Shown in pieces: positions 3,681 through 64,000 of a stretch of 64,000 nucleotides of DNA; positions within the stretch are counted from its first letter, which is position 1, and every line of letters starts with the position of its first letter. Location of the stretch: contig CAXXHB010000002.1 in the NCBI GenBank assembly GCA_963664815.2, forward strand, positions 416,001 to 480,000. The letters run 5' to 3'. The position numbers and the translations under genes are program-made. Source of the stretch: Spirochaetota bacterium. GTDB lineage: Bacteria; Spirochaetota; UBA4802; UBA5550. The notes under the pieces are model-generated. The model had not been told where the DNA came from, made no database searches, and was given only the letters and a program-made list of their open reading frames with translations.

Positions 3681-4281
3681 TCGGTTTTACGTTATAATTA
3701 CGTCTGAAAAGAAGTTTTTCTTCAGTATCAAAAATCAGGATAGTTATTTCATTAAAAAAGTAATAATTTTTCATGTATTTACTGAAATGACGTGAACTGA
3801 ATGTAATTGTATCATTGAGTGTGTACGGCTTACCGCTTTTTTTATCAATACCTGCTTTAATATTTTTCGGATATTTCTGATATACTTTTTTTTCTGCACC
3901 TGATTGATCTTTTATGATATATTCATAATTTGAAATATCATCAGGGTATGTCTGAATCAGCTTTATTAATTTAGTGTCTTCCATGCTTGGTTTTTCAAAA
4001 CTTGATTTTGTAATATATTCTTTTTCGTAGGTTGCTATAACAAAAATATAGAGATTTACAGGAATATTTGTCTGATTTTCGATCTGGAACTGCGTTTCAA
4101 GGATTTCACCATTGCTGTCAGTCTGAATTTTAGAAAATGTAAGATTTTGAACCTTGAAAAGATCCGTGAAAATTGATAAAACCGGCTCTTTTTTTATATC
4201 CAATTTGTTATCAGCACCTTTATCCTGAGAGAAAAGGAATACAGGTGTAATTAAAAAAAGAATGATTAAGAGATGTTTCAT
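3670..4281 (-). CDS. Hypothetical exported protein
   Basis: 203-aa ORF with signal peptide and an AGGT RBS. Confidence 0.65.
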   Translation of the reverse strand: MKHLLIILFLITPVFLFSQDKGADNKLDIKKEPVLSIFTDLFKVQNLTFSKIQTDSNGEILETQFQIENQTNIPVNLYIFVIATYEKEYITKSSFEKPSMEDTKLIKLIQTYPDDISNYEYIIKDQSGAEKKVYQKYPKNIKAGIDKKSGKPYTLNDTITFSSRHFSKYMKNYYFFNEITILIFDTEEKLLFRRNYNVKPIKR

Positions 4282-48046: not shown

Positions 48047-48412
48047 ATGAATAATTTTTTTAAAACATCAATCTGTGCAGTGTTAATAATGGGTATAATG
48101 ACAGCGGCAGTTGCAATGGACCCGAAGGTAAGTATAAAATTCACCTCTGAAGAGCTTGCCCTTTGTATAAATATTCTTAACACTATTGACCTCAGAGGCG
48201 ATGAGGTAATGCCGTTCATAGATATCAAGAATCTTCTTGTAGATGAATACAAGAGTGTAAGTTCAGATAAAAAAAAGTCGGTTGAAATTGATTTCCCCCT
48301 TCCAATGGCGAAAAATTTTCTTTTCTTTATGCAGAGGGCCAAGCTTAAAGGGGCTGAAGCGGAGATCTTTAACGACATATGCAATAAAATGATCAAGGCC
48401 ATAAAAAAGTAA
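48047..48412 (+). CDS. Hypothetical exported protein with an internal duplication
   Basis: Signal peptide (AVA); two similar ~45-aa halves. Confidence 0.65.
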   Translation: MNNFFKTSICAVLIMGIMTAAVAMDPKVSIKFTSEELALCINILNTIDLRGDEVMPFIDIKNLLVDEYKSVSSDKKKSVEIDFPLPMAKNFLFFMQRAKLKGAEAEIFNDICNKMIKAIKK

Positions 48413-48492: not shown

Positions 48493-51400
48493 ATGTTACC
48501 CGGGAAGATAAGTGTTATGAAAAGGTTAAAAGAGATCTTAAAGCAATTACTTGTACTTCTGCTGGCAGGTGAGATGTGTACCTTTGCACTGCCTCCATTA
48601 TACGCTGCGGATATAACTGTCGATACCTCGGCGGCGAACAAGCCCACTCTGGATACCGCACAGAACGGCGTAACAGTAGTAAACCTCGCAACAGCAAACT
48701 CAAACGGCGTTTCGCACAACATGTTTCAGAACTATAATGTAGGTACCGGCGGCGTAATACTCAACAACTCCGTAAATATGGGTGTGTCTGTTCTGGGGGG
48801 CGCCATGTATGGGAATCCCAATTACCAGAGCAGCGGCGTCGCCGCCTCTCTTGTAATAAACGAAGTGACGGGCACCGGAAGAAGCAGCCTGCTGGGAGCC
48901 ACGGAGATGTTTGGTAAATCTGCGGAATTTGTCCTTGTAAACCCCAACGGTATAATGTGCAACGGTGCCTCATTTATCAATATGCCCAGGGTAACCCTGG
49001 CCACAGGGAGGGCTGTCTTCGATTCCGATGTCTTTAAAGGCATAGATATAAGCGGCGGTTCACTGATAGTTGAGGGGAAGGGGATAGATGCCGGGCAGGT
49101 GAACTATTTTGAAATAGTATCAAGGGTAGCCTCCCTTAACGGCGGCATATGGGGAAAGGATGTAAGCATAAATACGGGAACCGGGTTTTATAACTATAAT
49201 GACAAAACATTTACACAGAAGGATACAGGCGAACCGAAACCTGAGATAGGGATTGACGCCTCCGCCCTTGGAAGCATATATGCAGGGCGAATTACAGTGG
49301 TAAGCAATGAGAAGGGCGTTGGCGTAAAATCGGACGGTGATATGGTTGCCGATGTATCGGATATAAAAATATCGGCTGACGGCAATATTGAACTGAAAAA
49401 TGCACAGTCTGCGAAAAATGTAACAGTAACCTCCATTTCAGGTGATATAAAACAGAACGGCAATACCTTTGCCATGGAGAATGCAGGCTATTCCGCTAAA
49501 AATATAACCAACAGGGGGAGCATAAAGGCCCTTAAGGATATATCGCTGGCAGGGTTAATTGACAATAACGGGGGGAAAATAGCCTCCTCGGGGAATATAG
49601 ATATAGCCGCAACAGGAACTCTCGACAATAACGGCGGGAGTATTACAACAGCTGGTGAAAACGGCACAATAAGCATACATGGTAACGGCAGCCTTGACAT
49701 ACTTGGCGGAGAGATAAAGTCTGCCGGTAATATCGGGATAGATATGACCGGAAACGTTACCCTGAACAGCGGAATATCTTCCATATATGCAGAGAAGCAC
49801 CTCGGCATATCCTCTGCTGACTTTACAAACAACATTAACCTCTCAATGAACGGAGCAATAGGGATAAACGCCTCCGGTAATATAGTCAACAGCAGCGGAA
49901 GCAGCATTGTTTCAAAACAGGGGGTGTCAATATCATCCGGCGGTAATATTGTCAACAGCGGCATTATAAGCAGCGCATCAGATATGGCTATAAATGGGAA
50001 AAATATAAGTAATTATAAAGAAATATCATCGGGAAATGATCTTGCTATACACGCAGATACAATTCTTAACAGCGGAGCCCTGATATTTTCAGGCAACAAG
50101 ATGACTATTGAGACAGGTTCCCTTAAAAATACCAGGAACGGCCTTAATGAGAGCTATATATATTCTATGGGAGATATGACAATTACAGGTACCGCTCCAA
50201 CAGGGAACAGTATATATAATTATTCCTCAAATATTGAATCTGAAAAAAACATGTCAATAAACCTTGGAGCAGACGGCAGGCTTGAAAATACGGGGGAGGA
50301 TACCTACGGGTATACCACAACACTTGTTCATGTAGGGGACTATGGGGATGAATGCTGGGCTGTAATGGATCAATATGTGCTCTCCCAGTCTCTGATGCAT
50401 ACTGATTACTCCACTATTAAGGCGGGTGGAAATCTGGACATTACATCCGGAGAGGTTAAAAACCATGGAAGCGTAATATCCGCAGGAGCTGATATTACAA
50501 TAAATGCAGCCACTCTTATAAATGAAACAAACAACAGGAATGAATATGTAGCGCAGCTTAATTATATGGGGCATAAACATCACTGGACAGAAACAATTTG
50601 CGGCTGGGGCTGGACAGAATATGATGAAGGGGATGATTATTCGGAAGTGTGGGAAGCCGGATACATTAATGTAGTATCCAATGATAAAGCCATTATAAGC
50701 GCCGGCGGAAAAGTTACTTTAACAGGCGGTGCGGTTAACAATGGATTTGTAGAGGAGAATAAGCCGGGAGTTGTACTATCCGGAAATACTGTTGATAAGG
50801 CATATGAAGCAATTGCAAATAATGGAGCCATTGATCTTTCTCAAAATATAAATATAAACAATGACGGAAACGCTCTTTTTACAGTAAACAGCGCTCCAGG
50901 TTCGACCTACCTTATAGAAACAAGAAATGAATTCATAGATGTAGAAAAGCTTAAGGGTTCACAGTATCTGCTGACCAGGATAGGATTTAACCCTGAAAAG
51001 GATGTGAAATTTCTTGGTGATGCGTTTTATGAGCAGAAGCTTGTTACGGAATCCATCCTTAAAGCCACTTCAAACAGGTACCTTGACGAGAGTATAAAGA
51101 GCGACCAGGAGCAGATGACATGGCTTCTTGACAACGCAGCCAGCGCCTACAGGGATCTTGAACTTGCAGTGGGAGTTGAACTGAGCAAAGACCAGATAAA
51201 CAGGCTGCAGCAGCCAATTATATGGTATGTGGAAGATGAGGTAATGGGCCAGAAAGTTCTTGTACCGAAGATATATATACCTGAACATATAATAGAGGGA
51301 TTTTCAAAGAACAGCAGTTCAACAATAGCGGGTAATTCGGTTAATATCAATGCTGATGGCAATGTAGGCAATGCCGGCAGGATTGAAGGGAAAAGCTCTG

Positions 51401-54400
51401 TGGAAATAACCGCGAATGGCAATATAACAAATAGCGGGGGAACAATAAAAAGCGGCGGTTCCCTTACCCTTACAGCAGTAAATGGAAATATTATAAATGA
51501 AACAGAAGTAAGCACTGCAGTATATAATCCGGACTATGTAAATACAACCGTTGGTGCAGCAGCATCCATAGAAGCAGGGGGAAAACTGACTGTAAACGCC
51601 GGGGGTAATTTTACAAACAGGGGGGCAGAAGTAAAATCGGGGGGTGACGCGGTAATTGAAGCCGGCGGGAATATAAATTTTGAGACGATTAAGATCAATA
51701 ATACTGTTTATAAGGAAGCTGACGATACAAGCGGAATATCAACTACCTCCGAATCTGCCGGTTCCACGCTTGCATCAGGGGGAAACCTTGTACTTACATC
51801 GGGAAGGGATATAAACTTTGTCGGGAGCAAAGCTGACATTACCGGTAATGCTGAAATAACTACAGCGGGTAATTTTAATCTTCTTAACGACTATGATACC
51901 AGTAGTTATCACGGCACAAAGAAAGAGAATAAAACCTTCAGCAGTGAAACCACAACAGTGGATATGAGTACAAAGACCGTTGTAAGCTCCGGTTTCACAA
52001 CAGGGGGAAACCTTAAGGTAAAGAGCGGAAACGACATAAATATAGTTGGAAGCGATATAAAATCGGGTGGAGATGCCGAACTTGACGCTGAAGGTACCGA
52101 AAGGATAATAGCAGTTCATGACGAATCATACTACAGCAGGACAACGGAAAAGACAGGTTTTGCCACAGGTGGGGCATTATACGGCTCCGAGAAGAAAAGC
52201 GACATGGTGTCGGACAAGACAGTCAGCGGCTCTGCCATTGACATAGCAGGGCAGTACGCATCAAAATCGGGGAAAGATACCGATATAACAGGGAGCACAC
52301 TTAATATAGGGGGCGAAGCCGATATAACCACCGGCGGCAGTTTAAATGTAAGGGCCGCATACAACGAACATGCGGAAGAGCATAAAACAGAGAAGAGCGG
52401 AGTATTGACAACAGACGGCGATCTGTACGCCAAATCGATAGACGCAGCCGGAAACGGAGCAACAACAGCCGCGGGATCTGCAATAACTGCCGGAAAACTT
52501 AAAGCATCCACAGGCGGCGATTTTCTGATGGAGGGGAGCGCCATAAACGCCGGCATTGCGGAATTTGACACAACCGGCAGTTTTACAGAAACAAGCGCAA
52601 AAGAGACAAGCTACGAATACAGCATCCATGAAAAGACCACAATGGGGATAAACATGGACCTGTTTACCAACCCCAAAAACGCCTTTGACTATGACCAGGG
52701 GAGAGCTTCTGTAACGCTTGCAGGGGGGAGCTACGACAGCGTAAAGGAGAGGACAGACAGGGAGACACAGAGCTCATCAAAACTTAATGTATCGGAAGAC
52801 CTTACGGTAAACAGCGGAAAGAATATAACAGTAGCGGGATCTGAGATAAATACCGGTGGAGATGTAACCCTTACGGCGGCAGAAAACGTAAGCATAAAGA
52901 CAACAGAAGAGAAGACAAGCCATACAGCAGAAGAGACTCACGGAAGCGTGGAATTTTCGTTTGGGGGCAAGAATGCCGCAACGGATGTGGCATACGCAAC
53001 AAAGGCTCTGGTAGAGGCAAAGGAAGCAGTTGTAAAGGCAAAGAATGATTATGAGAAATACAGGGAGAGCCTGAAGAAAGCGGAAGATGACCATAAAAAC
53101 AACCTTATAGACCAGGATGATCTGGATTCAATAAGAGAGCAGGAGGCCTTTTACATTGCGAATATAGCGCTCTGCGGGGAGAACGTGGTTGCAAAGACAG
53201 CGGCGCTGCTGCAAAGCGCAGCGGGGGCGGCGGGATCTGCAGAGGCATTCGGCTTCAGCGGAGATGCCCAGTTTGAAATAGACGCCACAAAAACAAAATC
53301 GACATCGGAAAGCACAACTGCAAAGGCATCGACAATAAAAACCGGAGGGAGCTTTACCGTAACAGCGGGGAGCAAAGCGGAGGTAAAGGGGAGCAGCGTG
53401 GCAGCCGGCGAGGATATAACCCTTGACGCAGAGAATGTGGAGATAAGCGCGGCGGAGAACAGAGAGAGCAGCAGCGAAGATAAGAAACATGCCAACATGA
53501 AGGTAAGTTTCGGAACATCGGGAGCAATTGGAGTTAATGCATCAGCAGACAGCACGGAGACAGATAGCGAAAGCAAAACATATACCAACGCACATTTAAG
53601 CGGAAACAACATAAAAATAAAGAGCAGCGAAGACACAACCGTAATCGGCGGAGTGGTAAAGGCGAAAAACGAGCTTGACCTTGATGTAAACGGCTCCCTT
53701 GTGGTACAATCACTGCAGGATAAGAGTAAAAACAGCTCGCAGACCATAGGCGCAAGCGGTGGAGTAAGTGTAACAGGCGAAAACGTATCGGGAAATGCCG
53801 GAGTAAACGCAAACTTCTCCACGGGGAAGAAAAGCTGGGTAACAGAACAGACATCCCTAACCGGCGGGACAGTAAACGTAGACGTTGAAGACAAGACAAC
53901 CCTAAGAGGGGCAGTAATAGCATCAACAACGAACAACCTGACACTTACAACCGGAAGCCTCGAGTTCAGCAACATAAAGGACAAGGACGTATCTTTCAAT
54001 GCAGGTGGAAGCGCAGGCGGCAGCTTCAAACCAACAGAAAATACGTACAGTTCAAGTTTAAACTACGGCTACACAGACAACAGACAGACAAACCTGGCCA
54101 CAATAGGAGCAGGAACAATAACAATAACCAAACCGGAAACATCGGCAGAGGGACTTAACAGAGATGTAACAATATCACAATACAATACATACAGCGGAGG
54201 ACTGAAAGGCGGAGTTACGGTAGATACCGCAACAGTAGAACTGATAAAAGACAGGGAAAAGACCTTATATAATACAGTAGATGCATTGGAAAGTGGATTA
54301 ACTGAAGCAGAGAAAACAGCGAAAAAGGTAGATAAGGAAATTGAAACAACAATTGAGAAGACTGAGAACCTGATTGATGTCGGGGAGTTTGGGCTTAATA

Positions 54401-55014
54401 AAGATTCAGATGTAATAAAAGCAAAACTTGAAGAATATAATGTGGATTTAGAAAAGAATGGAATTGAAGATGTAAGATCATTGAAGGGATTCAGCATTAT
54501 AAGTGAAGATGGAAATTTAATCAATGTTTTATCTTCGGGAGAATTGATTATTAAACCATTACAGGCTTTTGAAAATAGACCGGAATTGGCTTATCCTCTT
54601 GAAATGGGAGGTGATACAGAAAATACAACTTATAGTAAGAAAATAATATCATCTTCTAAAAATGGATATATAGATTTAAATATTTCTGGTGGATATATCG
54701 GAGGTATAACTGGTGGTTTAATTTTAAGTAATAATGGTAATCTATATCCATATTTAGGCGTAGGTTTGGTAACACCCGGTATTAGTGGTGCTTTAACTAT
54801 TTCAACCTCAGAAGCAAGTAGCGGATTTAATGTTGGTTTGCAAGCACAGAATGTTGTAGCTGGTCAAATCGGTTATAGTTTCCAAAATAATGGAAGTTCA
54901 TTTGGAGAACTTGGATTTGGAGCACCTGCTGGGGTTTCTGTAACTGGATATTATATATTTAATCCTATTACTAACATTTTAAATAAACCATCTGTTAATT
55001 ATGGTAAAAAATAA
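48493..55014 (+). CDS. Filamentous haemagglutinin / CdiA-like polymorphic toxin (TpsA) with a Gly-rich C-terminal toxin domain
   Basis: TPS domain (GVSHN, NPNY, INEVTG, NPNGI..NG..FIN), haemagglutinin repeats, LGDAFYEQ...PIIWYV...VLVPKIY segment, variable C-terminus followed by a small immunity gene; start may be 48517. Confidence 0.9.
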   Translation: MLPGKISVMKRLKEILKQLLVLLLAGEMCTFALPPLYAADITVDTSAANKPTLDTAQNGVTVVNLATANSNGVSHNMFQNYNVGTGGVILNNSVNMGVSVLGGAMYGNPNYQSSGVAASLVINEVTGTGRSSLLGATEMFGKSAEFVLVNPNGIMCNGASFINMPRVTLATGRAVFDSDVFKGIDISGGSLIVEGKGIDAGQVNYFEIVSRVASLNGGIWGKDVSINTGTGFYNYNDKTFTQKDTGEPKPEIGIDASALGSIYAGRITVVSNEKGVGVKSDGDMVADVSDIKISADGNIELKNAQSAKNVTVTSISGDIKQNGNTFAMENAGYSAKNITNRGSIKALKDISLAGLIDNNGGKIASSGNIDIAATGTLDNNGGSITTAGENGTISIHGNGSLDILGGEIKSAGNIGIDMTGNVTLNSGISSIYAEKHLGISSADFTNNINLSMNGAIGINASGNIVNSSGSSIVSKQGVSISSGGNIVNSGIISSASDMAINGKNISNYKEISSGNDLAIHADTILNSGALIFSGNKMTIETGSLKNTRNGLNESYIYSMGDMTITGTAPTGNSIYNYSSNIESEKNMSINLGADGRLENTGEDTYGYTTTLVHVGDYGDECWAVMDQYVLSQSLMHTDYSTIKAGGNLDITSGEVKNHGSVISAGADITINAATLINETNNRNEYVAQLNYMGHKHHWTETICGWGWTEYDEGDDYSEVWEAGYINVVSNDKAIISAGGKVTLTGGAVNNGFVEENKPGVVLSGNTVDKAYEAIANNGAIDLSQNININNDGNALFTVNSAPGSTYLIETRNEFIDVEKLKGSQYLLTRIGFNPEKDVKFLGDAFYEQKLVTESILKATSNRYLDESIKSDQEQMTWLLDNAASAYRDLELAVGVELSKDQINRLQQPIIWYVEDEVMGQKVLVPKIYIPEHIIEGFSKNSSSTIAGNSVNINADGNVGNAGRIEGKSSVEITANGNITNSGGTIKSGGSLTLTAVNGNIINETEVSTAVYNPDYVNTTVGAAASIEAGGKLTVNAGGNFTNRGAEVKSGGDAVIEAGGNINFETIKINNTVYKEADDTSGISTTSESAGSTLASGGNLVLTSGRDINFVGSKADITGNAEITTAGNFNLLNDYDTSSYHGTKKENKTFSSETTTVDMSTKTVVSSGFTTGGNLKVKSGNDINIVGSDIKSGGDAELDAEGTERIIAVHDESYYSRTTEKTGFATGGALYGSEKKSDMVSDKTVSGSAIDIAGQYASKSGKDTDITGSTLNIGGEADITTGGSLNVRAAYNEHAEEHKTEKSGVLTTDGDLYAKSIDAAGNGATTAAGSAITAGKLKASTGGDFLMEGSAINAGIAEFDTTGSFTETSAKETSYEYSIHEKTTMGINMDLFTNPKNAFDYDQGRASVTLAGGSYDSVKERTDRETQSSSKLNVSEDLTVNSGKNITVAGSEINTGGDVTLTAAENVSIKTTEEKTSHTAEETHGSVEFSFGGKNAATDVAYATKALVEAKEAVVKAKNDYEKYRESLKKAEDDHKNNLIDQDDLDSIREQEAFYIANIALCGENVVAKTAALLQSAAGAAGSAEAFGFSGDAQFEIDATKTKSTSESTTAKASTIKTGGSFTVTAGSKAEVKGSSVAAGEDITLDAENVEISAAENRESSSEDKKHANMKVSFGTSGAIGVNASADSTETDSESKTYTNAHLSGNNIKIKSSEDTTVIGGVVKAKNELDLDVNGSLVVQSLQDKSKNSSQTIGASGGVSVTGENVSGNAGVNANFSTGKKSWVTEQTSLTGGTVNVDVEDKTTLRGAVIASTTNNLTLTTGSLEFSNIKDKDVSFNAGGSAGGSFKPTENTYSSSLNYGYTDNRQTNLATIGAGTITITKPETSAEGLNRDVTISQYNTYSGGLKGGVTVDTATVELIKDREKTLYNTVDALESGLTEAEKTAKKVDKEIETTIEKTENLIDVGEFGLNKDSDVIKAKLEEYNVDLEKNGIEDVRSLKGFSIISEDGNLINVLSSGELIIKPLQAFENRPELAYPLEMGGDTENTTYSKKIISSSKNGYIDLNISGGYIGGITGGLILSNNGNLYPYLGVGLVTPGISGALTISTSEASSGFNVGLQAQNVVAGQIGYSFQNNGSSFGELGFGAPAGVSVTGYYIFNPITNILNKPSVNYGKK
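54185..54372 (+). repeat. Homology block A, copy 1 (188 bp, in the main toxin gene)
   Basis: Near-identical to 57100..57287. Confidence 0.95.
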
Positions 55015-55236
55015 ATGGTTACGAATAATCTATCCTTTATATTAGCATTAATATTTTTTATAATTGTACTTATCTTTAATAAAAAAATAGCAAAAAAAAT
55101 AATATTAGATCAGAATAAAAAAATGGGTTTTAACTTTAGTGAAAGAGAAATAAAAATTACTGAAAAACTTTTAGTAATTATTAGTTTTCTATTTTTAATT
55201 TTTACACTGACAATAAAATTAGGTTTTATTAGATGA
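55015..55236 (+). CDS. Putative immunity protein (2-TM membrane protein)
   Basis: Starts immediately after the toxin stop; two hydrophobic helices; very AT-rich. Confidence 0.7.
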   Translation: MVTNNLSFILALIFFIIVLIFNKKIAKKIILDQNKKMGFNFSEREIKITEKLLVIISFLFLIFTLTIKLGFIR

Positions 55237-55248
55237 ATTAATAAAATT

Positions 55249-55571
55249 AAATGTATCATCATACCAGACAATGGATGAGTACGCGAAGAAGGTAGAAAAC
55301 GGGGAACCGGTAAGTGCACAGGAGAAGCTTGATTATTATGAGTTAAAAAAAGCTGTCGGAGAAAAACTGAGTCCTGAAGAGCAGCAGGATGAGAATAAAG
55401 CGATTCAGACAAGAACCAAAGAAGTAGCAAATGATCTGAAGCAGGATATTCTTGATACATATACAAAAGATACTGCGGTTGTAATAAATGCCAAGATAGC
55501 GTTGCTTAAAGAAATTGATCCTGAAGCGGCACATGCAATTGAGGTTAAGTTTGCTAAGGAGAGGGCGGCGA
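55249..55571 (+). repeat. Homology block B, copy 1
   Basis: 70-bp identical stretch 55249..55318 = 57317..57386, plus a near-identical stretch ~55444..55571 matching ~57512..57639. Confidence 0.9.
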
Positions 55572-56383
55572 ATGAGAAAACAAAAGAGGCTAAGTATCTT
55601 GCCGACTTTAAAGAACTGGACAGATCGAAGACTAATGAATATTTAGAAGGACAAAAAGGTAAGGATTTATCGTATTACGCAGGTGAATTTGGTGAAGGAC
55701 TTTTATCTTCATTACCGACTAAGGATGAAATAAAAGAATCATTAAAAACAGGTGGATTATACCTGATAAATCCTGCACTGGGAAGTGCTTATGAATTTAA
55801 TAAAAGAGTTGAGACTGTAACAGGTTTAGCAGATAATATAAGTGAACAGGGTGCAGGAAACTATTTAGGCAATGTAGCAGAAAATGTAAAAGAGAAGGTA
55901 ACCGAACACCCTGCTGAGGTGGCTGGTTTCATTGCAGGTGAATTGATTGAGAATGCTTTAATAAATAAAGGATTATCAGTTTCCGGTATTACAAGTGCTG
56001 AGAATGTTTTGGGTGTAACAGGGAAAGCGGATGATGTTTCAAAAAAATATTATAGATATATTGACGAAGGTGAAGCTAACGTTATTAGAAATACTGGTGA
56101 AATCCCGAATACTAATAAATATGGTGATCCCAAAGATATATTTATAACTGATCGTCGTTATGAAACTGCTGGTGGTGCAAAAACTTATAATCAATTACCC
56201 TTAAAACCTGAATACAGAATAGAAATAGACCCTGAAAATGTACCTAATAGAACACCTTTTACAAAGATAGAGCCAAATCATCATCCTGAATGGGGAAAAG
56301 GTAGGGGTGTTGAAGCAATAACAAAAGATCCGATACCAGTCAACCCTGATGATTTGGTTAAATTGAAAGGGACAGGAAAATGA
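55271..56383 (+). CDS. Orphan toxin cassette 1 (C-terminal toxin, possibly ADP-ribosyltransferase-like)
   Basis: N-terminus shared with cassette 2; C-terminal YYRYI...IFIT...WGKGRGVE domain; overlaps the downstream gene (ATGA). Confidence 0.7.
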   Translation: MDEYAKKVENGEPVSAQEKLDYYELKKAVGEKLSPEEQQDENKAIQTRTKEVANDLKQDILDTYTKDTAVVINAKIALLKEIDPEAAHAIEVKFAKERAANEKTKEAKYLADFKELDRSKTNEYLEGQKGKDLSYYAGEFGEGLLSSLPTKDEIKESLKTGGLYLINPALGSAYEFNKRVETVTGLADNISEQGAGNYLGNVAENVKEKVTEHPAEVAGFIAGELIENALINKGLSVSGITSAENVLGVTGKADDVSKKYYRYIDEGEANVIRNTGEIPNTNKYGDPKDIFITDRRYETAGGAKTYNQLPLKPEYRIEIDPENVPNRTPFTKIEPNHHPEWGKGRGVEAITKDPIPVNPDDLVKLKGTGK

Positions 56384-56808
56384 ATAAAAGTTGGCCTGAA
56401 GAAATGCTTTTCGAATATTATAAAAATAAAGAAACGATAAATAATCTATTAGTTCATGTTATTTTATTATCAGAATTAAAAAATGATTTTTCTCTTGGTC
56501 ATTTTTTGACTGATAAAAATGGAAGAATCAAAATAACAAAAGATTTTATGATGAATGAAATAAAAAGAAATGAGTTAGAATTCCCAATGGACTATAAAGG
56601 AACTTTAGAAAATTGCTATGGAATTAAAATAATTATAGAAAATATTGATGATTTGAATGATAGGAAAATTAGAATAGAAAAATATTATCCTAATGATGCA
56701 AAAAAATTTGAAGAATTAATTCTGAAATGTTCAAATGCTAATTATTTAACAAAAGAATTTATTTATAAGTTCCCTTTAGAAAAAAATGAGTTTAAAATAG
56801 AAATGTAA
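56380..56808 (+). CDS. Putative immunity protein for cassette 1
   Basis: 4-bp overlap with the toxin ORF; AT-rich soluble 142-aa protein. Confidence 0.7.
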   Translation: MNKSWPEEMLFEYYKNKETINNLLVHVILLSELKNDFSLGHFLTDKNGRIKITKDFMMNEIKRNELEFPMDYKGTLENCYGIKIIIENIDDLNDRKIRIEKYYPNDAKKFEELILKCSNANYLTKEFIYKFPLEKNEFKIEM

Positions 56809-56896
56809 TCTATCTTTAGCACGGCGATTATTGCTGAAGCTCTGGGATTCGAAGGTGAGAGTTTAAAAAACGTCACCAACAGTTCAACATGTCGCA

Positions 56897-57100
56897 ATAA
56901 TTGAGTAGCTTGACGTCGTCGCCAATGACTGTGTAAAGTTTATTTTAAAACAAGGCGACGATGTGCTAAAGCGAACATCTAGTGAAAATTTCGTGTTCTA
57001 TAATTCTGAACCAGCTAATTATTGATCTTTGAAAGTAATTTTTTTCTGTTATATACCGGAAAAAAAAGTTTTCGCAGGATTGTGCGCAGGCAGATGTTGA
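56897..57100 (+). repeat. Inter-cassette unit, copy 1 (degenerate hairpin plus 107-bp leader)
   Basis: Similar to 62063..62295; leader 56994..57100 aligns with 62189..62295. Confidence 0.85.
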
Positions 57101-58328
57101 TACATACAGCGGAGGACTTAAAGGCGGAGTTACGGTAGATACGGCAACAGTAGCACTGATAAAAGACAGGGAAAAGACTATATATGATACAGTGGGTGCA
57201 TTGGAAAGTGGATTAACTGAAGCAGAGAAAACAGCGAAGAAGGTAGATAAGGAAATTGAAACAACAATTGAGAAGACTGAGAACCTGTTAAAATTTGACC
57301 ACTATACAGAAAATAAAAATGTATCATCATACCAGACAATGGATGAGTACGCGAAGAAGGTAGAAAACGGGGAACCGGTAAGTGCATCAGAGACACTTGC
57401 ATATTACGGATCAAAAAACCTTGTCGGAGAAGCACTGAGCCCCGATGAGCAGATGGATATGCTGAATGCTTACAAAACTGTAAAGCAGGAGCTGTCAAAT
57501 AGTCTGTCAAAGGATATTCTTGATACATATACAAAAGATACTGCGGTTGTAATCAATGCCAAGATAGCGCTGCTTAAAGAGATTGACCCTGATGCGGCAC
57601 ATGCAATTAAAGTTAGGTTTGCGGAGGAAAGGGCGGCGATAGCTTATGCTAAGCAGCTGGCGGTAAATTCAGGTTTAAGAGATGCGGAGATACAGCAGGG
57701 AAATGAGATAGCAAATAATGTTGTCAATCTTTCGGGAACAGTTAATACAATGGGGATTGATAATACTGATTCCAATTCTCCTGATGCAAAACTATTACGT
57801 ATAGTTAAAGACAAATTAACTGAAAATTCGATTGAATCGATTGCAAATGCCGGAAATTCTGATAGTACGTTGAAGCAGGCATTCAATTTAGCTTTAGGTG
57901 TAGTGTTTAAGGAAGCAGCAGACAATATACCTGAACATATAAGTGTTGCTGACGTAGGGCTTTCTGAAGCTGCAGGAAATGTTTTTGGAAAGGTAGAAAA
58001 ACAAATTGTTAATGAAACGGAAGATGCTGCTAACCTTGTGGAAAGAAATCTTCCATTTAAAGATTCAGATCGCTTGACTGAAATTAATAAAACTCTTGAT
58101 AGAATTGAGCAAGGAGATAACTTTTGTTATAAAAAAGATGGAACTCTTTTTAGAAATGACAAAAAAAAATTACCAGCTGATGGTGATTATAGAGAATATA
58201 CAGTTAATACACCAGGCGCATCTAATAGAGGAACTCGTAGAATTTTAGTAGATCAAAATAGTGGTAATACATATTATACTGATGACCACTATGAAAATTT
58301 TATACAAATAAATCCAAAGAAAAAATAA
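57100..58328 (+). CDS. Orphan toxin cassette 2 with a C-terminal barnase/RNase Sa-family ribonuclease (no clear start; frame open through block A)
   Basis: Begins with a copy of the main toxin sequence (TYSGGLKGG...); C-terminal F.N....LP...YREYTV.TPG..NRG.RRI...YYTDDHY..F. Confidence 0.85.
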
Positions 58329-58330
58329 AA

Positions 58331-58738
58331 ATGATAAATAAATTAGAAAAATATTTGTATGACTGTATTCATTTTACAACTGATAATATAAATAATTATT
58401 TAAAAGAGAATTATAATAATTTTAATATTTTAATAATTGATAATAATTCTATAGAAAATGATAAAGATCTATTTAATTCAATTGCAAATGTAATGAAATT
58501 TCCTGATTATTTTGGGAAAAATTGGGATGCATTGGATGAATGCCTACGAGATCTTGACTGGCTTGAATTAAAAGAGGGATTGATATTAGTTATACTTAAT
58601 TCAAAAAAAATATGGCAAAGATGTCCGATGACAGCTGGTAAATTAATAGAAAGTTGGTTAACTGTTGTAGATTATTGGTCTAAAGAAAAAGTTCCATTTC
58701 ATTTATTTTTTTCTGAAATGGAAATTGATAAATTATAA
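58331..58738 (+). CDS. Barstar family immunity protein
   Basis: FPDYFGKNWDALDECLRDL motif, directly downstream of the RNase toxin. Confidence 0.92.
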   Translation: MINKLEKYLYDCIHFTTDNINNYLKENYNNFNILIIDNNSIENDKDLFNSIANVMKFPDYFGKNWDALDECLRDLDWLELKEGLILVILNSKKIWQRCPMTAGKLIESWLTVVDYWSKEKVPFHLFFSEMEIDKL

Positions 58739-59020
58739 TTCAACTAACGAATAACGAAACCATGGAATGTAAATCGATTTTATTTTAAGAATTATAAATT
58801 TCTGATAATGTAGACTTGTAGTTCCTTTCTACGTCACATATCGTGTAAATGAAAAAGTTCCTTGAAAACCAACAATATAAAAGCACACCGCGTGAGAGAT
58901 TGCAGCGATATAAAACGGCAATCAATAAATAGTTAAATGAAAACCCTATGTGCGTAAGCGTCAAATTAACCCCATCTTGAAAAAAGATCAATGATATATT
59001 ACAATACCCTTCATTAAAAA

Positions 59021-59347
59021 ATGGAGGAAGAGATGAGTAAAAGAATTGAATATCAGAAACGCGATATGTCAAGCATGGAGAAACATATAGCCGCCTGGGA
59101 ACAAAGCGGGATATCACAAGTTGAGTATTGCAGAGAGAATAAAATACCTCTGTCAACCTTCGGCAACTGGAAATCAAAAGTAAGTAAAAAATCTCAGAAA
59201 GAAATACCATTTATTGAACTGCAGGGGAATTTTTCATATCAGGATGAATATTTTGAATTACTGCTCGATGATGGCATGACTTTGAGAATCCGTGAAACCA
59301 TCCCTGTATCGCAATTACGAAATATCATTCTTGCCATACGGAGGTAG
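59021..59347 (+). CDS. tnpA: IS66 accessory protein TnpA
   Basis: W..SG.SQ.EYC..N.I..STF..W helix-turn-helix. Confidence 0.85.
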   Translation: MEEEMSKRIEYQKRDMSSMEKHIAAWEQSGISQVEYCRENKIPLSTFGNWKSKVSKKSQKEIPFIELQGNFSYQDEYFELLLDDGMTLRIRETIPVSQLRNIILAIRR

Positions 59348-59697
59348 TGATGCTCAGTTTGCAGAGAGAAACGAGAATATTTCTTCATCCCGGCAAAACA
59401 GATTTTCGGAAGTCAATCAATGGTTTATCCGTCTTTGTTCAGGAGCATATGAAGGAAGACCCTTTCAGCGGGAATTACTATGTGTTCTGCAACCGGACAA
59501 AAAATATGCTGAAGATATTATACTGGGACAGGAATGGTTTCTGCCTGTGGCATAAAAGGCTGGAGGAGGATAAATTCCGCTGGCCCCGGATAGCCGAAGA
59601 TGTCCATGAGATTACCCGCGAGGAATTCCGGTGGCTGTTACAGGGGCTTGACTTCTATAATGCTCATAAAATCCGCCGTTATGCAAGCGTGATATAA
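59347..59697 (+). CDS. tnpB: IS66 accessory protein TnpB
   Basis: DFRKSINGL, FCNR...KILYWDRNGF.LW.KRLE. Confidence 0.93.
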   Translation: MMLSLQRETRIFLHPGKTDFRKSINGLSVFVQEHMKEDPFSGNYYVFCNRTKNMLKILYWDRNGFCLWHKRLEEDKFRWPRIAEDVHEITREEFRWLLQGLDFYNAHKIRRYASVI

Positions 59698-59720
59698 AAA
59701 TTAATTGCAATCATGAGGGC

Positions 59721-61316
59721 ATGTTATATGATGTACTCATGATTGCAATGCCCGACAACCTTCCTGATGATGTAAACGAGCTCAAGAAAATTATTTCAAA
59801 CCTGGCAAATGAATACGAAAAAGAAATTCAATATCTTAAAGAGAAAAATAAATTTTTACTTCAAAAGTTATTCGGCCGTAAAAGCGAGAAGCTGACTCCC
59901 GATGATATTCTACAGGGCCGGTTGTTTGATGAATCAGAATTCAGCTCTGATGAGAATGAAAACGCAGAAGATGATTCACCTGAAAAGCTAACCGTTGTTT
60001 CATCTCATACACGCCGGAAGACAGGAAAGAAACCTCTTCCGGAATCACTCCCTCGTGTTGATGTTGTACATGATATCTCCGAAGAAGAAAAACAGTGTGC
60101 CTGCGGGTGCGAGATGAAACGCATTGGGGAAGAAGTTTCTGAAAAGCTTGATATGATTCCTGCGAAAATCCAGGTGCTTCGTCATATCCGATATAAATAT
60201 GCCTGTAAAAACTGTGAAGGGAGCGAAAGTGATGAAGCTCCGGTAAAGATTGCGCCATTGCCTCCGCAGATTATACCGCAGGGGATTGCAACACCAGGAC
60301 TTGCGGCATGGGTGCTGGTGAGTAAATTCTGCGATGCGCTTCCTTTTTACCGGCAGGAAAAGCTTTTTTCCCGGATTGGTGTTGATATTTCACGAGCGAC
60401 TTTTTGTAACTGGTCCATTATTACACATAGAGGCAGTGAACGGCTGCTCGAACTGATGTGGAGAGATATTCTTGCGTCTCGGCTTGTTGGCATGGATGAG
60501 ACGCCGGTGCAGGTTATGAAAGAGCCAGGCCGCAAAAATACAACAAAGTCATACATGTGGCTGTTCCGGGGTGGAGAAGAAACCCGACCAATTGTGATAT
60601 TCCGGTATGCTCCGACCCGGGGATCGGAATTCATAAACAGTGAATTTGCGGATTACGAAGGTGTCATCCAGACCGACGGCTATCAGGGATACAAAACTCT
60701 GGGTAAAAAAGAAAAAGTAACACATGCTGTATGCTGGGCACATGTCCGGAGAAAATTCATGGAAGCGATGAATGGCACCAGTCAGTCTTTTTCACATTCT
60801 ATAGTATCGATGATAAAAACGCTTTATGATGTAGAAAAAGAAATACGTGAGAATAAATATAACCATGAAGAGATCAGACAGGTGCGCAATGATAAATCAC
60901 GTCCAGTAGTGGAAAAGATAGAACAGCAATTGAAAAAGCATGTTCACAGTATTGCACCGGGAAGTCTTGCCGGTAAGGCAATCTCATACTCATTAAAGCT
61001 GTGGCCCCAGTTGTGTGTATATCTTGACAACCCTATTATTCCCATCGACAATAATCATGTTGAAAATGCAATCCGCCCTTTTGTGGTGGGACGAAAAAAC
61101 TGGCTTTTTTCCGGTAGCCCGCGCGGTGCCCATGCCAGTGCCGGATTATATAGCATAATAGAAACGGCAAAGGCAAATGGTCTTGAGCCATACTGGTATC
61201 TTAGATACCTGTTTGAAAAATTACCTGCCTGTACAAGTGATAATGAAATCCGGTCAATTATGCCGAATAGAATTGATCCTGAAGTTATCAGTAAACTCAG
61301 AGGTGGGGTTAATTAA
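59721..61316 (+). CDS. tnpC: IS66 DDE transposase TnpC
   Basis: FGRKSEK, zinc finger, LPFYRQ, DET, TDGY, CWAHVRRKF, DNN..EN.IRP...GRKNWLF. Confidence 0.95.
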   Translation: MLYDVLMIAMPDNLPDDVNELKKIISNLANEYEKEIQYLKEKNKFLLQKLFGRKSEKLTPDDILQGRLFDESEFSSDENENAEDDSPEKLTVVSSHTRRKTGKKPLPESLPRVDVVHDISEEEKQCACGCEMKRIGEEVSEKLDMIPAKIQVLRHIRYKYACKNCEGSESDEAPVKIAPLPPQIIPQGIATPGLAAWVLVSKFCDALPFYRQEKLFSRIGVDISRATFCNWSIITHRGSERLLELMWRDILASRLVGMDETPVQVMKEPGRKNTTKSYMWLFRGGEETRPIVIFRYAPTRGSEFINSEFADYEGVIQTDGYQGYKTLGKKEKVTHAVCWAHVRRKFMEAMNGTSQSFSHSIVSMIKTLYDVEKEIRENKYNHEEIRQVRNDKSRPVVEKIEQQLKKHVHSIAPGSLAGKAISYSLKLWPQLCVYLDNPIIPIDNNHVENAIRPFVVGRKNWLFSGSPRGAHASAGLYSIIETAKANGLEPYWYLRYLFEKLPACTSDNEIRSIMPNRIDPEVISKLRGGVN

Positions 61317-61399
61317 GCACATACCTATGTGCCAAGATAGTTGTCGCATGGAACATTGATTGGTAGTAAGAAAGAAGCTGCAAAAGTGGAGAACAAATT

Positions 61400-61996
61400 A
61401 TGAAATGGATTAAATTATTATATGCTATGTCGTTATCTCTTCTTTTGTTTTCAGGTTGTACATGTATTTACCCAGTTTTAGATTATGTTGACGAGAATAA
61501 TAAAAGTTATATTGAATTGTTTAATGAAGATGGTTGTAAAATTGAAATGAAATATTTGGGAACATATCCCACTTATCCTGATATTCACGGGAATCCTGTC
61601 ACTGAAGAAATAATTTCGCATGAACAAACATACATTTTTATTGATAGTTCCAATCGAAATGTAGATGGATATACAAGCAGCATTGAAAAATGTCATATTG
61701 AATTGAAAGATGAAGATAATAAAATTATATCTTTTAAAAGCATTGAATTAAAATCCTACTTAAAGAACTTTAATCATTATGATAAAGAAGAAAGTATATC
61801 AAAATTTAAACTAGATAGGGGTCTTTATGAAATTATATATTTATATAATGATACAAGTAATATAGAAAGTGCCAAATTTTATATCAAACTTCGTTTAATA
61901 ATTAAAGGCAAGATACATATAATAGAAAAATCAGCATTTTTGAAAAGAAAAGAGGGGAAAGTCTTTTTTACACCGTTTTGTAAAATAAAGTTTTGA
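61400..61996 (+). CDS. Lipoprotein, probable orphan immunity protein
   Basis: Lipobox FSGC; visible similarity to the ORF at 63491. Confidence 0.7.
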   Translation: MKWIKLLYAMSLSLLLFSGCTCIYPVLDYVDENNKSYIELFNEDGCKIEMKYLGTYPTYPDIHGNPVTEEIISHEQTYIFIDSSNRNVDGYTSSIEKCHIELKDEDNKIISFKSIELKSYLKNFNHYDKEESISKFKLDRGLYEIIYLYNDTSNIESAKFYIKLRLIIKGKIHIIEKSAFLKRKEGKVFFTPFCKIKF

Positions 61997-62062
61997 TTGA
62001 GGTGTCGTGTCTTCTCCATAGGTAGAAGTAAAAACACCACACAACCAAGTTCCGCATATAGC

Positions 62063-62295
62063 ATAATTGAGTAGCTAGACCGACATCGCCGGGGCTGGAT
62101 TAAGTTTCTGATACATGAGTCCGGCGATGTGCGTAGCGAACGTCTAGCGACAATTATGTTGAGTTGACATATTGATATTTTATTGATCTGTTCTATAACT
62201 CTGAATTAGTTAATTATTGATCTTTGAAAGTAATTTTTTTCTGTTATATACAGTGAAAAACCGTTTTCTCAGGATTGTATACGGGCAGATGTTGA
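62063..62295 (+). repeat. Inter-cassette unit, copy 2 (attC-like hairpin plus 107-bp leader)
   Basis: Hairpin arms CATAATTG/CAATTATG, GCTAGAC/GTCTAGC, ACATCGCCGG/CCGGCGATGT; leader shared with 56994..57100. Confidence 0.85.
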
Positions 62296-63484
62296 AGAGG
62301 CAACAGAAACTACCAAAGCTAAAGAAGGTCTTGGATTCGCGGGTACACTCGAGGCTGTAATTAATGCCCGTAAGGATGTATTAACAATAGCATCCCTGGC
62401 AGAGAACAAGGCTTTAGCTGAAAAACTCGATAATGCACTTGATAAAGATGCGGCATCATTGGGAGAAGCGGTTAATAAGGTTTCTGAAACTGTTCAGAGC
62501 AGCGATGGAGTTAAGGATGATAAAATATCTCATGTAAATCTGTATCAGGGTGATAAAACAGATAACGCGATGAATGGATATGCAGCAGCATATGACCAGA
62601 ATAGTAATGAAACATATCTGAATACCGAAGGAACAGATATATCAAAGGGTGGTGATATTATTACATCACTCTTCTGGGAAGCCCAGAGGAAGGATAACAC
62701 TACTAATGGGCTGGACCTTGATGCAGGACAGCAGCTAATACTTGCATCTTCACGTGGAGAACAGGCGGGAAATTTATGGAACAGGTTTTCAGAAACAGCT
62801 TCAACAACTACAAATCATGATGCTGTAATTAACTGGAATACAGTCAATGCGGGTTCAGATACACTGATTAAGGGGAGTGCTAAAGCGAATGAACTTAATA
62901 CAGACGATGGGCATGGGGTTGTACCGAGACCAATAACACCAGTTGATGTAAATAATGCAAGAGATATAGCGATAATGGAATCACCTAAAAAGGCATTAAC
63001 TCTTTTAACCGCAATAAAATTGGAAGGAAAAGAAGGAACCACAGAAGAGAAAGAGAATATGATGAATAAGATTGTAACTCATCCAAAAGCTGAAGAATTG
63101 TTAATGGAATTATTAAATAATGGTGAAACAAAAGGAGTTGATACAATTTATGAAACGATAAGTAGTACATTTGATAAAGGTAAACCGGATTTTGGTTCAT
63201 TTACAATTCAAAATGTGGATACATATGATTATCTTGTAACAAATAGAAATGAAGCACTCGAGGTAGTGAATTCGATTTTTGGACCAGATTATAACACTGC
63301 TGCAAGACTATACCCAAATGAAAAATATGATAGATATGGTGGGATACATATCGAAGCTGTAAAAATTGAAAATAATAGCACACAAGTTCAAATAGATATA
63401 GATCAATACCCACCGCAGGATATAATAAATTTACCAGCGCATTACTGGTATGATGTGTTGCAAAAGGGGAGTAAGGAAAAATAA
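62288..63484 (+). CDS. Orphan toxin cassette 3 (unknown C-terminal toxin; reading frame open from the leader junction, no canonical start there)
   Basis: Frame reads DVEEATETTK... without stops into the 62459 ORF; followed by a membrane-anchored ORF. Confidence 0.7.
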   Translation, partial: DVEEATETTKAKEGLGFAGTLEAVINARKDVLTIASLAENKALAEKLDNALDKDAASLGEAVNKVSETVQSSDGVKDDKISHVNLYQGDKTDNAMNGYAAAYDQNSNETYLNTEGTDISKGGDIITSLFWEAQRKDNTTNGLDLDAGQQLILASSRGEQAGNLWNRFSETASTTTNHDAVINWNTVNAGSDTLIKGSAKANELNTDDGHGVVPRPITPVDVNNARDIAIMESPKKALTLLTAIKLEGKEGTTEEKENMMNKIVTHPKAEELLMELLNNGETKGVDTIYETISSTFDKGKPDFGSFTIQNVDTYDYLVTNRNEALEVVNSIFGPDYNTAARLYPNEKYDRYGGIHIEAVKIENNSTQVQIDIDQYPPQDIINLPAHYWYDVLQKGSKEK

Positions 63485-63490
63485 GATTAA

Positions 63491-64000
63491 ATGAAAAATC
63501 CTGTAAAAAAAATTAAGAAAGTAATAATTACATTTTTGGTTCTTTTTTCAATTATATTTGTGGGGGTATTTGCTTTCTCAATAATAGGTGTATATGTATT
63601 ACAGCCTCATTATGATTATGTTTATTATGTTGATGAAAGAGAAAAGGACTCAATATCTGTTTCTCTAGATGAAATATCTAAAGCAGCAATTTGGTTTGAA
63701 TATTTAGAAGATTTTTCAAGTATCGGGTCAGCGGCTGTTCCAAAAGAAATTGATGGAATGGTATATACGCAGATATTAATAATGGATATAATCCCACAAA
63801 TACATATAAAAGATTGCCGTGTGGAAATAAGAGATATAAAAAATCAAATCATACCGCATAAGTCAGTAGTAATTCGAGATAAAACTTATTATAAGAATAA
63901 ATACAATGAGTATATAAAATATAATAATATAGATGAATATATTAAAACAAAGCCGGTAATAGATACAGAACACACAAATTATGCGATATATTATACATAT
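63491..64000 (+). CDS. Putative membrane-anchored immunity protein for cassette 3 (3'-truncated by the window edge)
   Basis: MKNPVKKIKKVIITFLVLFSIIFVG... open to the window end; starts 6 nt after the toxin stop. Confidence 0.7.
   Translation, partial: MKNPVKKIKKVIITFLVLFSIIFVGVFAFSIIGVYVLQPHYDYVYYVDEREKDSISVSLDEISKAAIWFEYLEDFSSIGSAAVPKEIDGMVYTQILIMDIIPQIHIKDCRVEIRDIKNQIIPHKSVVIRDKTYYKNKYNEYIKYNNIDEYIKTKPVIDTEHTNYAIYYTY

Follow-up and report, generated by a model that had tools for sequence, protein, structure and literature searches.

A recurrent non-coding unit with a candidate promoter in front of silent toxin/immunity cassettes of a Spirochaetota bacterium

Introduction

Orphan toxin/immunity arrays are thought to be either a record of past toxin swaps or a reserve arsenal. 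To our knowledge, it is rarely addressed how the immunity genes that become displaced in such arrays stay expressed. In the sections of PMC4927057 on orphan modules, displaced modules are described as being kept for immunity or as silent stores, and as recombining with the upstream gene (PMC4927057), and passages of a second source describe recombination of tpsA with tpsC cassettes in Neisseria meningitidis (PMC3848433). Here we consider a 64,000-nucleotide stretch of a Spirochaetota bacterium genome (GenBank assembly GCA_963664815.2, contig CAXXHB010000002.1, positions 416,001 to 480,000 of the forward strand; hereafter the window, with positions counted from its first letter), in which a full-length TpsA/CdiA-like toxin gene, the main gene, is followed by toxin cassettes, two of which (cassettes 2 and 3) stand behind copies of a 107-bp non-coding leader. 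A first-pass annotation had read this leader as fused in frame at the NRDV motif of the toxin and as the candidate recombination site of a toxin-cassette system. In our best reading the loci that carry the leader would represent an orphan array of the contact-dependent growth inhibition (CDI) type, shaped by displacement, duplication and homologous exchange. Within this classical kind of array the leader would be a promoter and 5′ untranslated region that moves along with orphan modules and sustains transcription of their immunity genes, a function toward which we lean with moderate confidence.

The leader and the inter-cassette unit

The two leader copies of the window are indeed a repeat, with 93 of 107 positions identical (blastn, 86.9%). 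Eight copies were found genome-wide, three at the window locus and five chromosomal, and none lies outside these two TpsA/CdiA-like toxin loci. Six are full-length, one matches over 104-105 of the 107 nt and one is split by an insertion sequence (IS); all eight have the orientation of the cassette downstream, that is, they are direct repeats. Tabulation of the sequence behind each blastn match showed that two of the eight copies run into one kind of cassette, class A, and six into another, class B, and that none is followed by arbitrary sequence. A lone segmental duplication does not describe the set either, with eight copies in two loci that all precede toxin cassettes. The split copy (G000:C3:2111782-2113093, where G000 denotes this genome) holds an IS with two 173-aa open reading frames (ORFs), and leader positions 22-28 are found on both sides of it, suggestive of a target duplication of 7 bp.

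The leader forms the 3′ part of a longer inter-cassette unit of about 240 bp, which consists of a post-immunity hairpin, a 31-nt spacer and the leader, and which is shared by five other copies. The copy in front of cassette 2 has suffered a deletion of about 30 nt that removed the 3′ end of its hairpin and the spacer; the leader's 5′ edge, TGTTCTATAA, is the end of this deletion, and thus the apparent 5′ edge of a "107-bp" element is due to it. The motif ATGTTGA was considered as a direct repeat flanking spacer and leader and was discarded, its first copy being only a variant of the usual 3′ flank of the hairpin.

The hairpin, approximately 100 nt long, closes toxin/immunity modules, and its fullest copies end ATATCGCATAATTG...CAATTATGCGATAT. 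There are 10 copies in the genome, with a compensatory change at 6 of 25 predicted pairs; the diverged copy upstream of cassette 2 folds at -25.4 kcal/mol (z -1.8). Since it has no T-run, the hairpin is not a typical intrinsic terminator. It is also present in a metagenome relative (L038 2014-2100), again after an immunity gene, with no leader behind it, and when a 361-nt query was compared with five genomes of the same genus (L063, L064, L065, L066, L067) the hairpin was matched in four and the spacer or leader in none. At the chromosomal array the last tpsA fragment (G000:C3:2082335-2082470) ends AATACATACA and is fused directly to a hairpin at 2082334. This fusion lies within 10 nt of the point at which a class A leader cassette starts (AATACATACAGC) and may mark a local hot spot within a short tandem repeat of CAATA.

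Outside this genome the leader looks species-specific. No credible match was found in 60 relatives, where two gave matches of 29-38 nt to the T-rich core of the leader (E 3.6e-5 and 4.1e-4) that we treated as chance; an exact 24-mer of the leader had no match in species-representative genomes, and among 14 related loci the best blastn match had an E of 2.5. A search of species genomes for close relatives of the region around NRDV likewise found none. As a structured RNA the leader was rejected, with fold z values of -0.25 to -0.86 on both strands. Leader, hairpin and leader2, a second inter-cassette element described below, belong to no Rfam family, the sole rows returned being mir-302_2 (E 0.67) and Flavo-1 (24.5 bits, cut-off 42).

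A candidate promoter in front of silent cassettes

Six of the seven leader copies with an intact 5′ part carry a sigma-70-like sequence, TTGAYA-16 nt-TATAAY, with 11 of 12 consensus matches. This candidate promoter spans the boundary of spacer and leader and is directed into the cassette, and it is kept in the chromosomal copy at 2093504 despite otherwise diverged upstream sequence. A promoter scan of the sister copy C2_480453 returned TTGATA-16-TATAAT (11/12), and the 400 nt around that copy hold six promoter-like sites, compared with 1.5 +/- 1.2 in shuffles. Judging from a crude count of motifs in front of long ORFs, this genome uses sigma-70-type promoters and Shine-Dalgarno sites. Among public sequencing runs, none of RNA was found to contain the locus.

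The cassettes themselves are, as previously described, silent 5′-truncated toxin tips, each followed by an immunity gene; in cassette 2 the pair is a barnase-like RNase and a barstar. The pairs are toxin/immunity modules of the inter-bacterial kind. In both window copies the junction reads GAT GTT GAn in the frame of the cassette, and from the first in-frame stop upstream (codon -19) up to the junction this frame contains no ATG, GTG or TTG. The same lack of an in-frame start holds for six of the seven leader copies analysed, the exception being a decayed class A cassette at chromosome position 2085977, whose 80-codon frame is in frame with upstream TTG codons. An ATG is present at the junction itself in the +1 frame, which closes after 23 codons in class B and after 14 codons in class A. 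In the contigs of four public runs, which were compared with window positions 53001-64000, one-base length differences were seen in or beside the A8 tract (57060-57073) of the cassette 2 leader in three of the four; they could be strain polymorphism or paralogue mapping. The length of the A tract sets the frame of the cassette relative to the upstream TTG.

Two cassette classes and the NRDV boundary

Behind the leader, class A reads (D/N)TYSGGLKGG, which is the region that follows NRDV-TISQY in the expressed genes. Class B reads EEATETTKAKEGLGFAGTLEAV and continues into a conserved domain of about 215 aa that ends GVVPR or GVVAR and is followed by a different tip each time. It had been stated that similarity stops exactly where toxin coding sequence begins, and this is correct between the two cassette classes (GATGTTGA), but within a class similarity runs on past the junction. 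Class A orphans match the expressed genes over 188 to 831 bp at 95-96% identity, cassette 2 matches its chromosomal paralogue, a long orphan, over 1858 bp (94.8% identity), and class B copies match one another over 511 to 641 bp. The second class A leader cassette, which is chromosomal, carries the tip of the main gene itself in frameshifted form, with 96.3% identity over 831 bp. Class B has homology to none of the three full-length genes of the genome. Except in cassette 2, the immunity ORFs are small, directly downstream and without a known family, so their role would follow from position; NCBIfam gave no names for six proteins.

The class B domain (window 62288-62935) sits between the TpsA body and the variable tips in relatives. 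Its family counts 34 representatives at E <= 0.001 among 1.84 billion proteins, including one protein of 2279 aa with the domain at residues 1837-2029 and many orphan-sized pieces, and it may be a new pre-toxin or release domain. Look-alikes in the Atlas (best 0.81, metallopeptidase clusters) fell below the useful level and were set aside.

The 2173-aa product of the main gene has an N-terminal TPS secretion domain followed by filamentous-haemagglutinin repeats (Pfam). This gene and two chromosomal paralogues are the full-length TpsA genes of the genome; the paralogues are 99% identical to it over the first 5880 nt and diverge after nt 5880, and all three proteins share GLNRDVTISQYNTYSGGLKGG and have different tips beyond. 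LNRD(V/T/I/E), with xxxQ(Y/E) behind it, is retained in four of four distant full-length relatives. Because the proteins are shared up to LNRDV, their tips diverge after it and the relatives keep the motif, LNRDV plays the part of the boundary motif of this toxin family.

The fusion of the leader at this boundary did not survive closer comparison. The hexamer AGATGT is present at 54162-54167 within the NRDV codons of the main gene, as had been noted, but as a link between leader and NRDV it is weak: the 6522-nt gene contains AGATGT seven times, five of them in the same codon phase, and main gene and leader end have only 6 nt in common, which falls short of the matching site that had been supposed. 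Class A homology begins at NTYSGG, five codons later, and lacks the TISQY that relatives conserve. Class B homology to TpsA fragments of relatives begins about 57 to 70 residues past LNRD(V/T), and in the long fragments its start reads (E/D)GLG..GTLEAV, or is placed by profile at the V of DV. The two classes thus begin at different points of the toxin architecture, and a common fusion at NRDV is not supported. The 3′ part of the leader, its last 20 codons, was also compared with the class B linker as its possible decayed form ("VIYS...CIRADV" with "IAYS...AVKAVDV"), and this origin was not supported: in shuffle tests p was 0.32 for the best score and 0.11 for the sum, similar scores were obtained in the two remaining frames, and the profile of the relatives aligns from the V of DV onward.

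A second element with a fixed end

The core of leader2 measures approximately 200 nt. Full copies lie at G000:C2:482743-482950 and G000:C3:2109677-2109883, and the element was aligned with copies from three other contigs or species (L040 630-815, L036 4396-4590, L039 2188-2380). A structure of five helices is supported by this alignment: 88% of cells are paired, compared with about 35% when the partners are slid, there are eight compensatory pairs, and the covariation score was reached by none of 500 shuffles. The element has no sigma-70-like promoter. Its 3′ end is fixed (CACGCCC) and is joined to tpsA nt 5566/5567 in four copies and to nt 4123 in one, and in a contig of another species it is joined to a different orphan start. 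A covariance model of the 3′ domain found six copies in this genome, all in toxin loci, and matches in 14 of 64 family genomes (this one included) and in 4 of 25 genera. In the other genomes TpsA homology was near only 2 of 11 fetched loci, and leader2 is thus wider than toxin loci. The leader is not a relative of leader2: with filters off, the model gave at most 8.7 bits (E 0.47) over 55000-64000, and its rows fell on hairpins and not on the leader.

Array architecture, recombinases and insertion sequences

The window belongs to a plasmid-like replicon of 842 kb in a genome of 5.2 Mb with 37-38% G+C. The window locus and the chromosomal locus share a large ordered block (barnase tip, barstar, leader2 fragment, lipoprotein, leader, class B) with flanks that are 94-95% identical. 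Other kinds of orphan are present besides those behind the leader: some start at tpsA nt 4123 or 4137, in the repeat region, and others at nt 5566 or 5567; some stand behind leader2, one directly behind a hairpin and one, without a leader, behind the immunity ORF of the main gene. This last one, of 370 aa, is homologous to the middle of class A tips. Such a mixture of types is what an array that is a "fossil record" would give. The genome has a single match to the TpsB/CdiB transporter (ShlB family, E 9.3e-83), directly upstream of one chromosomal tpsA; no TpsB gene was found beside the toxin gene of the window, so the transporter is present at only one of the two loci.

The linked recombinase that had been suspected is not encoded on the replicon as a tyrosine recombinase; genome-wide there are nine Phage_integrase matches, the nearest about 100 kb from the chromosomal locus, and serine recombinases and Y1/HUH transposases were not found in the genome. 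A shufflon-type arrangement of inverted repeats with a dedicated recombinase was not found either. Rearranged junctions fared no better: the contigs of the four public runs contain no joint between main gene and cassette, a weak negative given that they are short unitigs that break at repeats. One skip of 5 kb does recur in them (from 56941 to 62118, with 11 letters added), and it matches a paralogous hairpin copy. The IS66-family element of the window (58944-61324) is inserted inside a leader2 copy and is skipped in the contigs of three of the four runs, and its insertion is thus polymorphic among the samples; loose contig ends at 58933 (three runs) continue with sequence foreign to the window.

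Weighing the explanations

In the reading that we prefer, the parts of the unit follow one another in a set order. A conserved hairpin ends the preceding module, and behind it stands the candidate promoter of sigma-70 type, whose -35 lies in the 31-nt spacer and whose -10 lies at leader nt 6-11. Next come about 95 nt of untranslated leader with in-frame stops, a 5′-truncated C-terminal toxin module (a class A or class B pre-toxin part and a variable tip) and the cognate immunity gene. The promoter would transcribe through the silent toxin fragment into the immunity gene, and because it reads through, displaced or spare immunity genes would stay expressed even though they are severed from the tpsA promoter. 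Class A cassettes could be redeployed by homologous recombination with an expressed tpsA, and class B cassettes may chiefly store immunity to the class B toxins of relatives. The unit probably spread by tandem and inter-locus duplication together with gene conversion, and the DV at the leader end would be leader sequence or microhomology and not a remnant of NRDV.

Several observations weigh against this reading. The promoter is recognised solely by its match to the consensus, and the leader of cassette 2 itself keeps TATAAT and has lost the -35 (1/6 matches). With no leader relatives in other species, cross-species conservation is unusable as an argument for function, and conservation among copies gives no extra argument: between the six class B copies the last 85 nt of the leader differ at about 3% of sites and the adjacent coding DNA at 1-2%. 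Class B lacks a homologous full-length gene here, so the role of a silent store does not apply to it. Furthermore, the points at which the two unrelated cassette classes are joined to the leader coincide to within about 3 nt, and the presence of AGATGT within seven codons of where class A homology begins would be a chance event of a few percent, which is not decisive. Since duplication alone does not explain the shared junction, a second event at nearly the same position is needed, possibly through microhomology at AGATGT or at a defined end.

The most probable alternative, though we regard it as unlikely, is that the unit is an inert relic: flanking DNA co-copied in segmental duplication, with promoter-like hexamers that are fortuitous or left over from a neighbouring gene since lost, and a junction that arose when one illegitimate microhomology event was added to a duplication. 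The greater variability of the leader than of its adjacent coding DNA would be expected of such a relic, as would the lack of relatives in other species and of a significant RNA fold; the out-of-frame ATG right at the junction fits a former gene start, and many further scars of rearrangement and IS insertions are spread through the loci. What this account leaves aside is that the two hexamers and their 16-nt spacing are kept in six of seven copies, one of them with diverged surroundings, and that the region is enriched in promoter-like sites over shuffles. Slightly more doubtful is the proposal that modules of toxin tip and immunity gene are taken up or swapped at a dedicated joining site, the 3′ end of the leader (GGCAGATGTT), by a site-specific recombinase with a gene elsewhere, for instance a housekeeping enzyme of the Xer type, or through a nick or break fixed by the hairpin, which would then have a role like that of an integron attC site. 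Of the candidate recombination site of the first-pass annotation, it retains the recurrent locus-specific element and the shared junction, and it lacks the matching site, the linked recombinase and the rearranged forms. For a defined end speak the two unrelated classes that start within about 3 nt of one leader position, the equally fixed 3′ end that leader2 presents to different tpsA positions, the conserved genus-wide hairpin in which each module closes, and the in-phase AGATGT in the NRDV codons five codons from the start of class A homology. These are set against the absence of a tyrosine recombinase from the replicon and of serine recombinases and Y1 transposases from the genome, the 6 nt that are all that expressed genes share with the leader end, the different architecture points at which the classes start, and the direct orientation of all copies, which would permit only deletion or circle formation. 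The lack of a skipping joint between main gene and cassette in the run contigs points weakly the same way, and, to judge by eye, the stems of the hairpin do not match the attC box consensus of integrons. A broader version, in which the termini of leader (GGCAGATGTT) and leader2 (CACGCCC) capture tpsA 3′ ends with their immunity genes and the hairpin marks the other boundary, would be integron-like without a linked integrase and would depend on a host recombinase or on a mechanism guided by single-stranded DNA or RNA structure; we consider it improbable.

Two further explanations carry still less weight. Homopolymer tracts of the leader (T7-8, A5-8) might toggle the frame of the cassette with the upstream TTG and so switch a free-standing toxin fragment on and off. 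That one of seven analysed copies (chromosome 2085977) is in frame with upstream TTG codons, and that the A tract of the cassette 2 leader varies by one base in the contigs of three of four runs, would agree with such switching; yet no Shine-Dalgarno-like sequence precedes that TTG, a stop closes that frame in the class B leaders, any secretion domain would be missing from the product, the in-frame copy is a decayed cassette, and the contig variants could stem from paralogous copies, so that we hold it to be very improbable. Hardly credible, finally, is the end of a transposable element or miniature inverted-repeat transposable element (MITE) inserted by chance next to toxin tips. The unit is repeated, measures 107 to 240 bp and has sharp edges, an IS splits one of the copies, and IS66 and IS21 elements lie nearby, all of which could give that impression. 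But the copies occur only in two toxin loci, in constant order and orientation, their downstream sequence is never arbitrary, no associated transposase is present, and a reading of the copy ends revealed neither terminal inverted repeats nor target duplications.

If the promoter reading is true, a repeated near-consensus promoter before silent cassettes would be a simple answer to the question of how displaced immunity genes are expressed. With two toxin classes on a single junction, and with another structured element whose end is likewise fixed, the locus is a clean case for distinguishing random-scar from defined-end orphan junctions. Should the promoter not be real and the junction be a scar, this would be an ordinary orphan array.

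Features of the window

The genes that flank the window are ordinary, apart from one IS66. A 121-aa ORF at 48047-48412 has a signal-like N-terminus and no family, and the same neighbour is found directly upstream of all three full-length tpsA genes. The coordinates of the features are collected in Table 1.

Table 1. Features of the toxin locus in the window, in order of position.
Feature	Position	Strand	Details
Full-length TpsA/CdiA-like toxin gene (2173 aa)	48493..55014	+	Pfam TPS E 5.2e-42, Fil_haemagg_2 E 1.6e-45
LNRDV boundary codons in main gene	54157-54168	+	
Class A pre-toxin region in main gene, common to cassette 2	54185-54372	+	95.2% identity over 188 bp
73-aa ORF, candidate immunity gene (from position)	55015..55236	+	directly 3′ of main gene; no Pfam family
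Leaderless orphan fragment (370 aa, starts MDEYAKKVENG) and 142-aa ORF, candidate immunity gene	55271..56808	+	no Pfam family
Diverged post-immunity hairpin copy	56897..56990	+	about 72% identical to reference (blastn); 3′ end and spacer deleted
Leader copy 1	56994..57100	+	blastn; -10-like TATAAT 56999-57004, -35 lost; A8 tract 57060-57067
Cassette 2, silent class A tip (411-codon open frame from DV)	57093..58328	+	Pfam Ribonuclease PF00545 E 2.1e-15, residues 321-406
Barstar-family immunity gene of cassette 2	58331..58738	+	Pfam Barstar PF01337 E 3.4e-22
Leader2 fragment, cut by IS66	58856..58942	+	blastn 93% identity to leader2 positions 97-183
IS66-family insertion sequence, three ORFs (59021-61316)	58944..61324	+	Pfam TnpB_IS66, DDE_Tnp_IS66 and others
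198-aa lipoprotein-like ORF	61400..61996	+	76% identity over 692 bp to chromosomal copy; no family
Reference post-immunity hairpin, long imperfect inverted repeat	62056..62157	+	-40 kcal/mol, z -3.9, 0/200 shuffles as good
31-nt spacer	62158..62188	+	holds -35 hexamer TTGATA at 62172-62177
Leader copy 2	62189..62295	+	-10 TATAAC 62194-62199, 16 nt from -35; then about 95-96 nt untranslated with in-frame stops
Cassette 3, silent class B module: about 215-aa pre-toxin domain ending GVVPR, variable tip	62288..63484	+	no Pfam/NCBIfam family
Candidate immunity gene of cassette 3	63491..64000	+	runs off window, 225 aa in genome; no family

Comparison with described systems

With integrons the loci have in common arrays of promoter-less coding modules that each end in an imperfect hairpin, and fixed junctions to unrelated cassettes. 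They differ in that no integrase is linked, in that each leader-type cassette has its own copy of the candidate promoter instead of one common promoter, and in the hairpin base ATAATTG/CAATTAT, which by eye does not fit the attC box consensus. The orphan rhs-CT/rhsI module of Salmonella Typhimurium is similar in that a silent module is deployed after recombination with the upstream full-length gene (PMC4927057); Rhs is not a TPS delivery family, and the summary in PMC4927057 describes no repeated leader unit. The tpsC cassettes of N. meningitidis are silent 3′-end cassettes with intervening immunity ORFs that exchange with the tpsA 3′ end (PMC3848433). There the exchange proceeds via repeats or homology between tpsA and the 5′ ends of the cassettes, and the passages of PMC3848433 on these cassettes make no mention of a common promoter-bearing non-coding leader.

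The closest counterpart is the orphan cdiA-CT/cdiI array, in which, as far as the sections of PMC4927057 on it extend, a TpsA-type exoprotein likewise has a conserved body, a short boundary motif, a variable tip and an immunity gene, 5′-truncated tip/immunity pairs likewise follow downstream in tandem and in the same orientation among transposases, and some orphans are homologous to the expressed gene, which allows recombination (PMC4927057). The boundary is VENN in the part of PMC3848433 that names it (PMC3848433), whereas here it is LNRDV. The present loci differ further in that class B has no acceptor gene and TpsB is found at only one of the two loci, and in that a subset of the orphans stands behind a fixed non-coding unit with a consensus-like candidate promoter.

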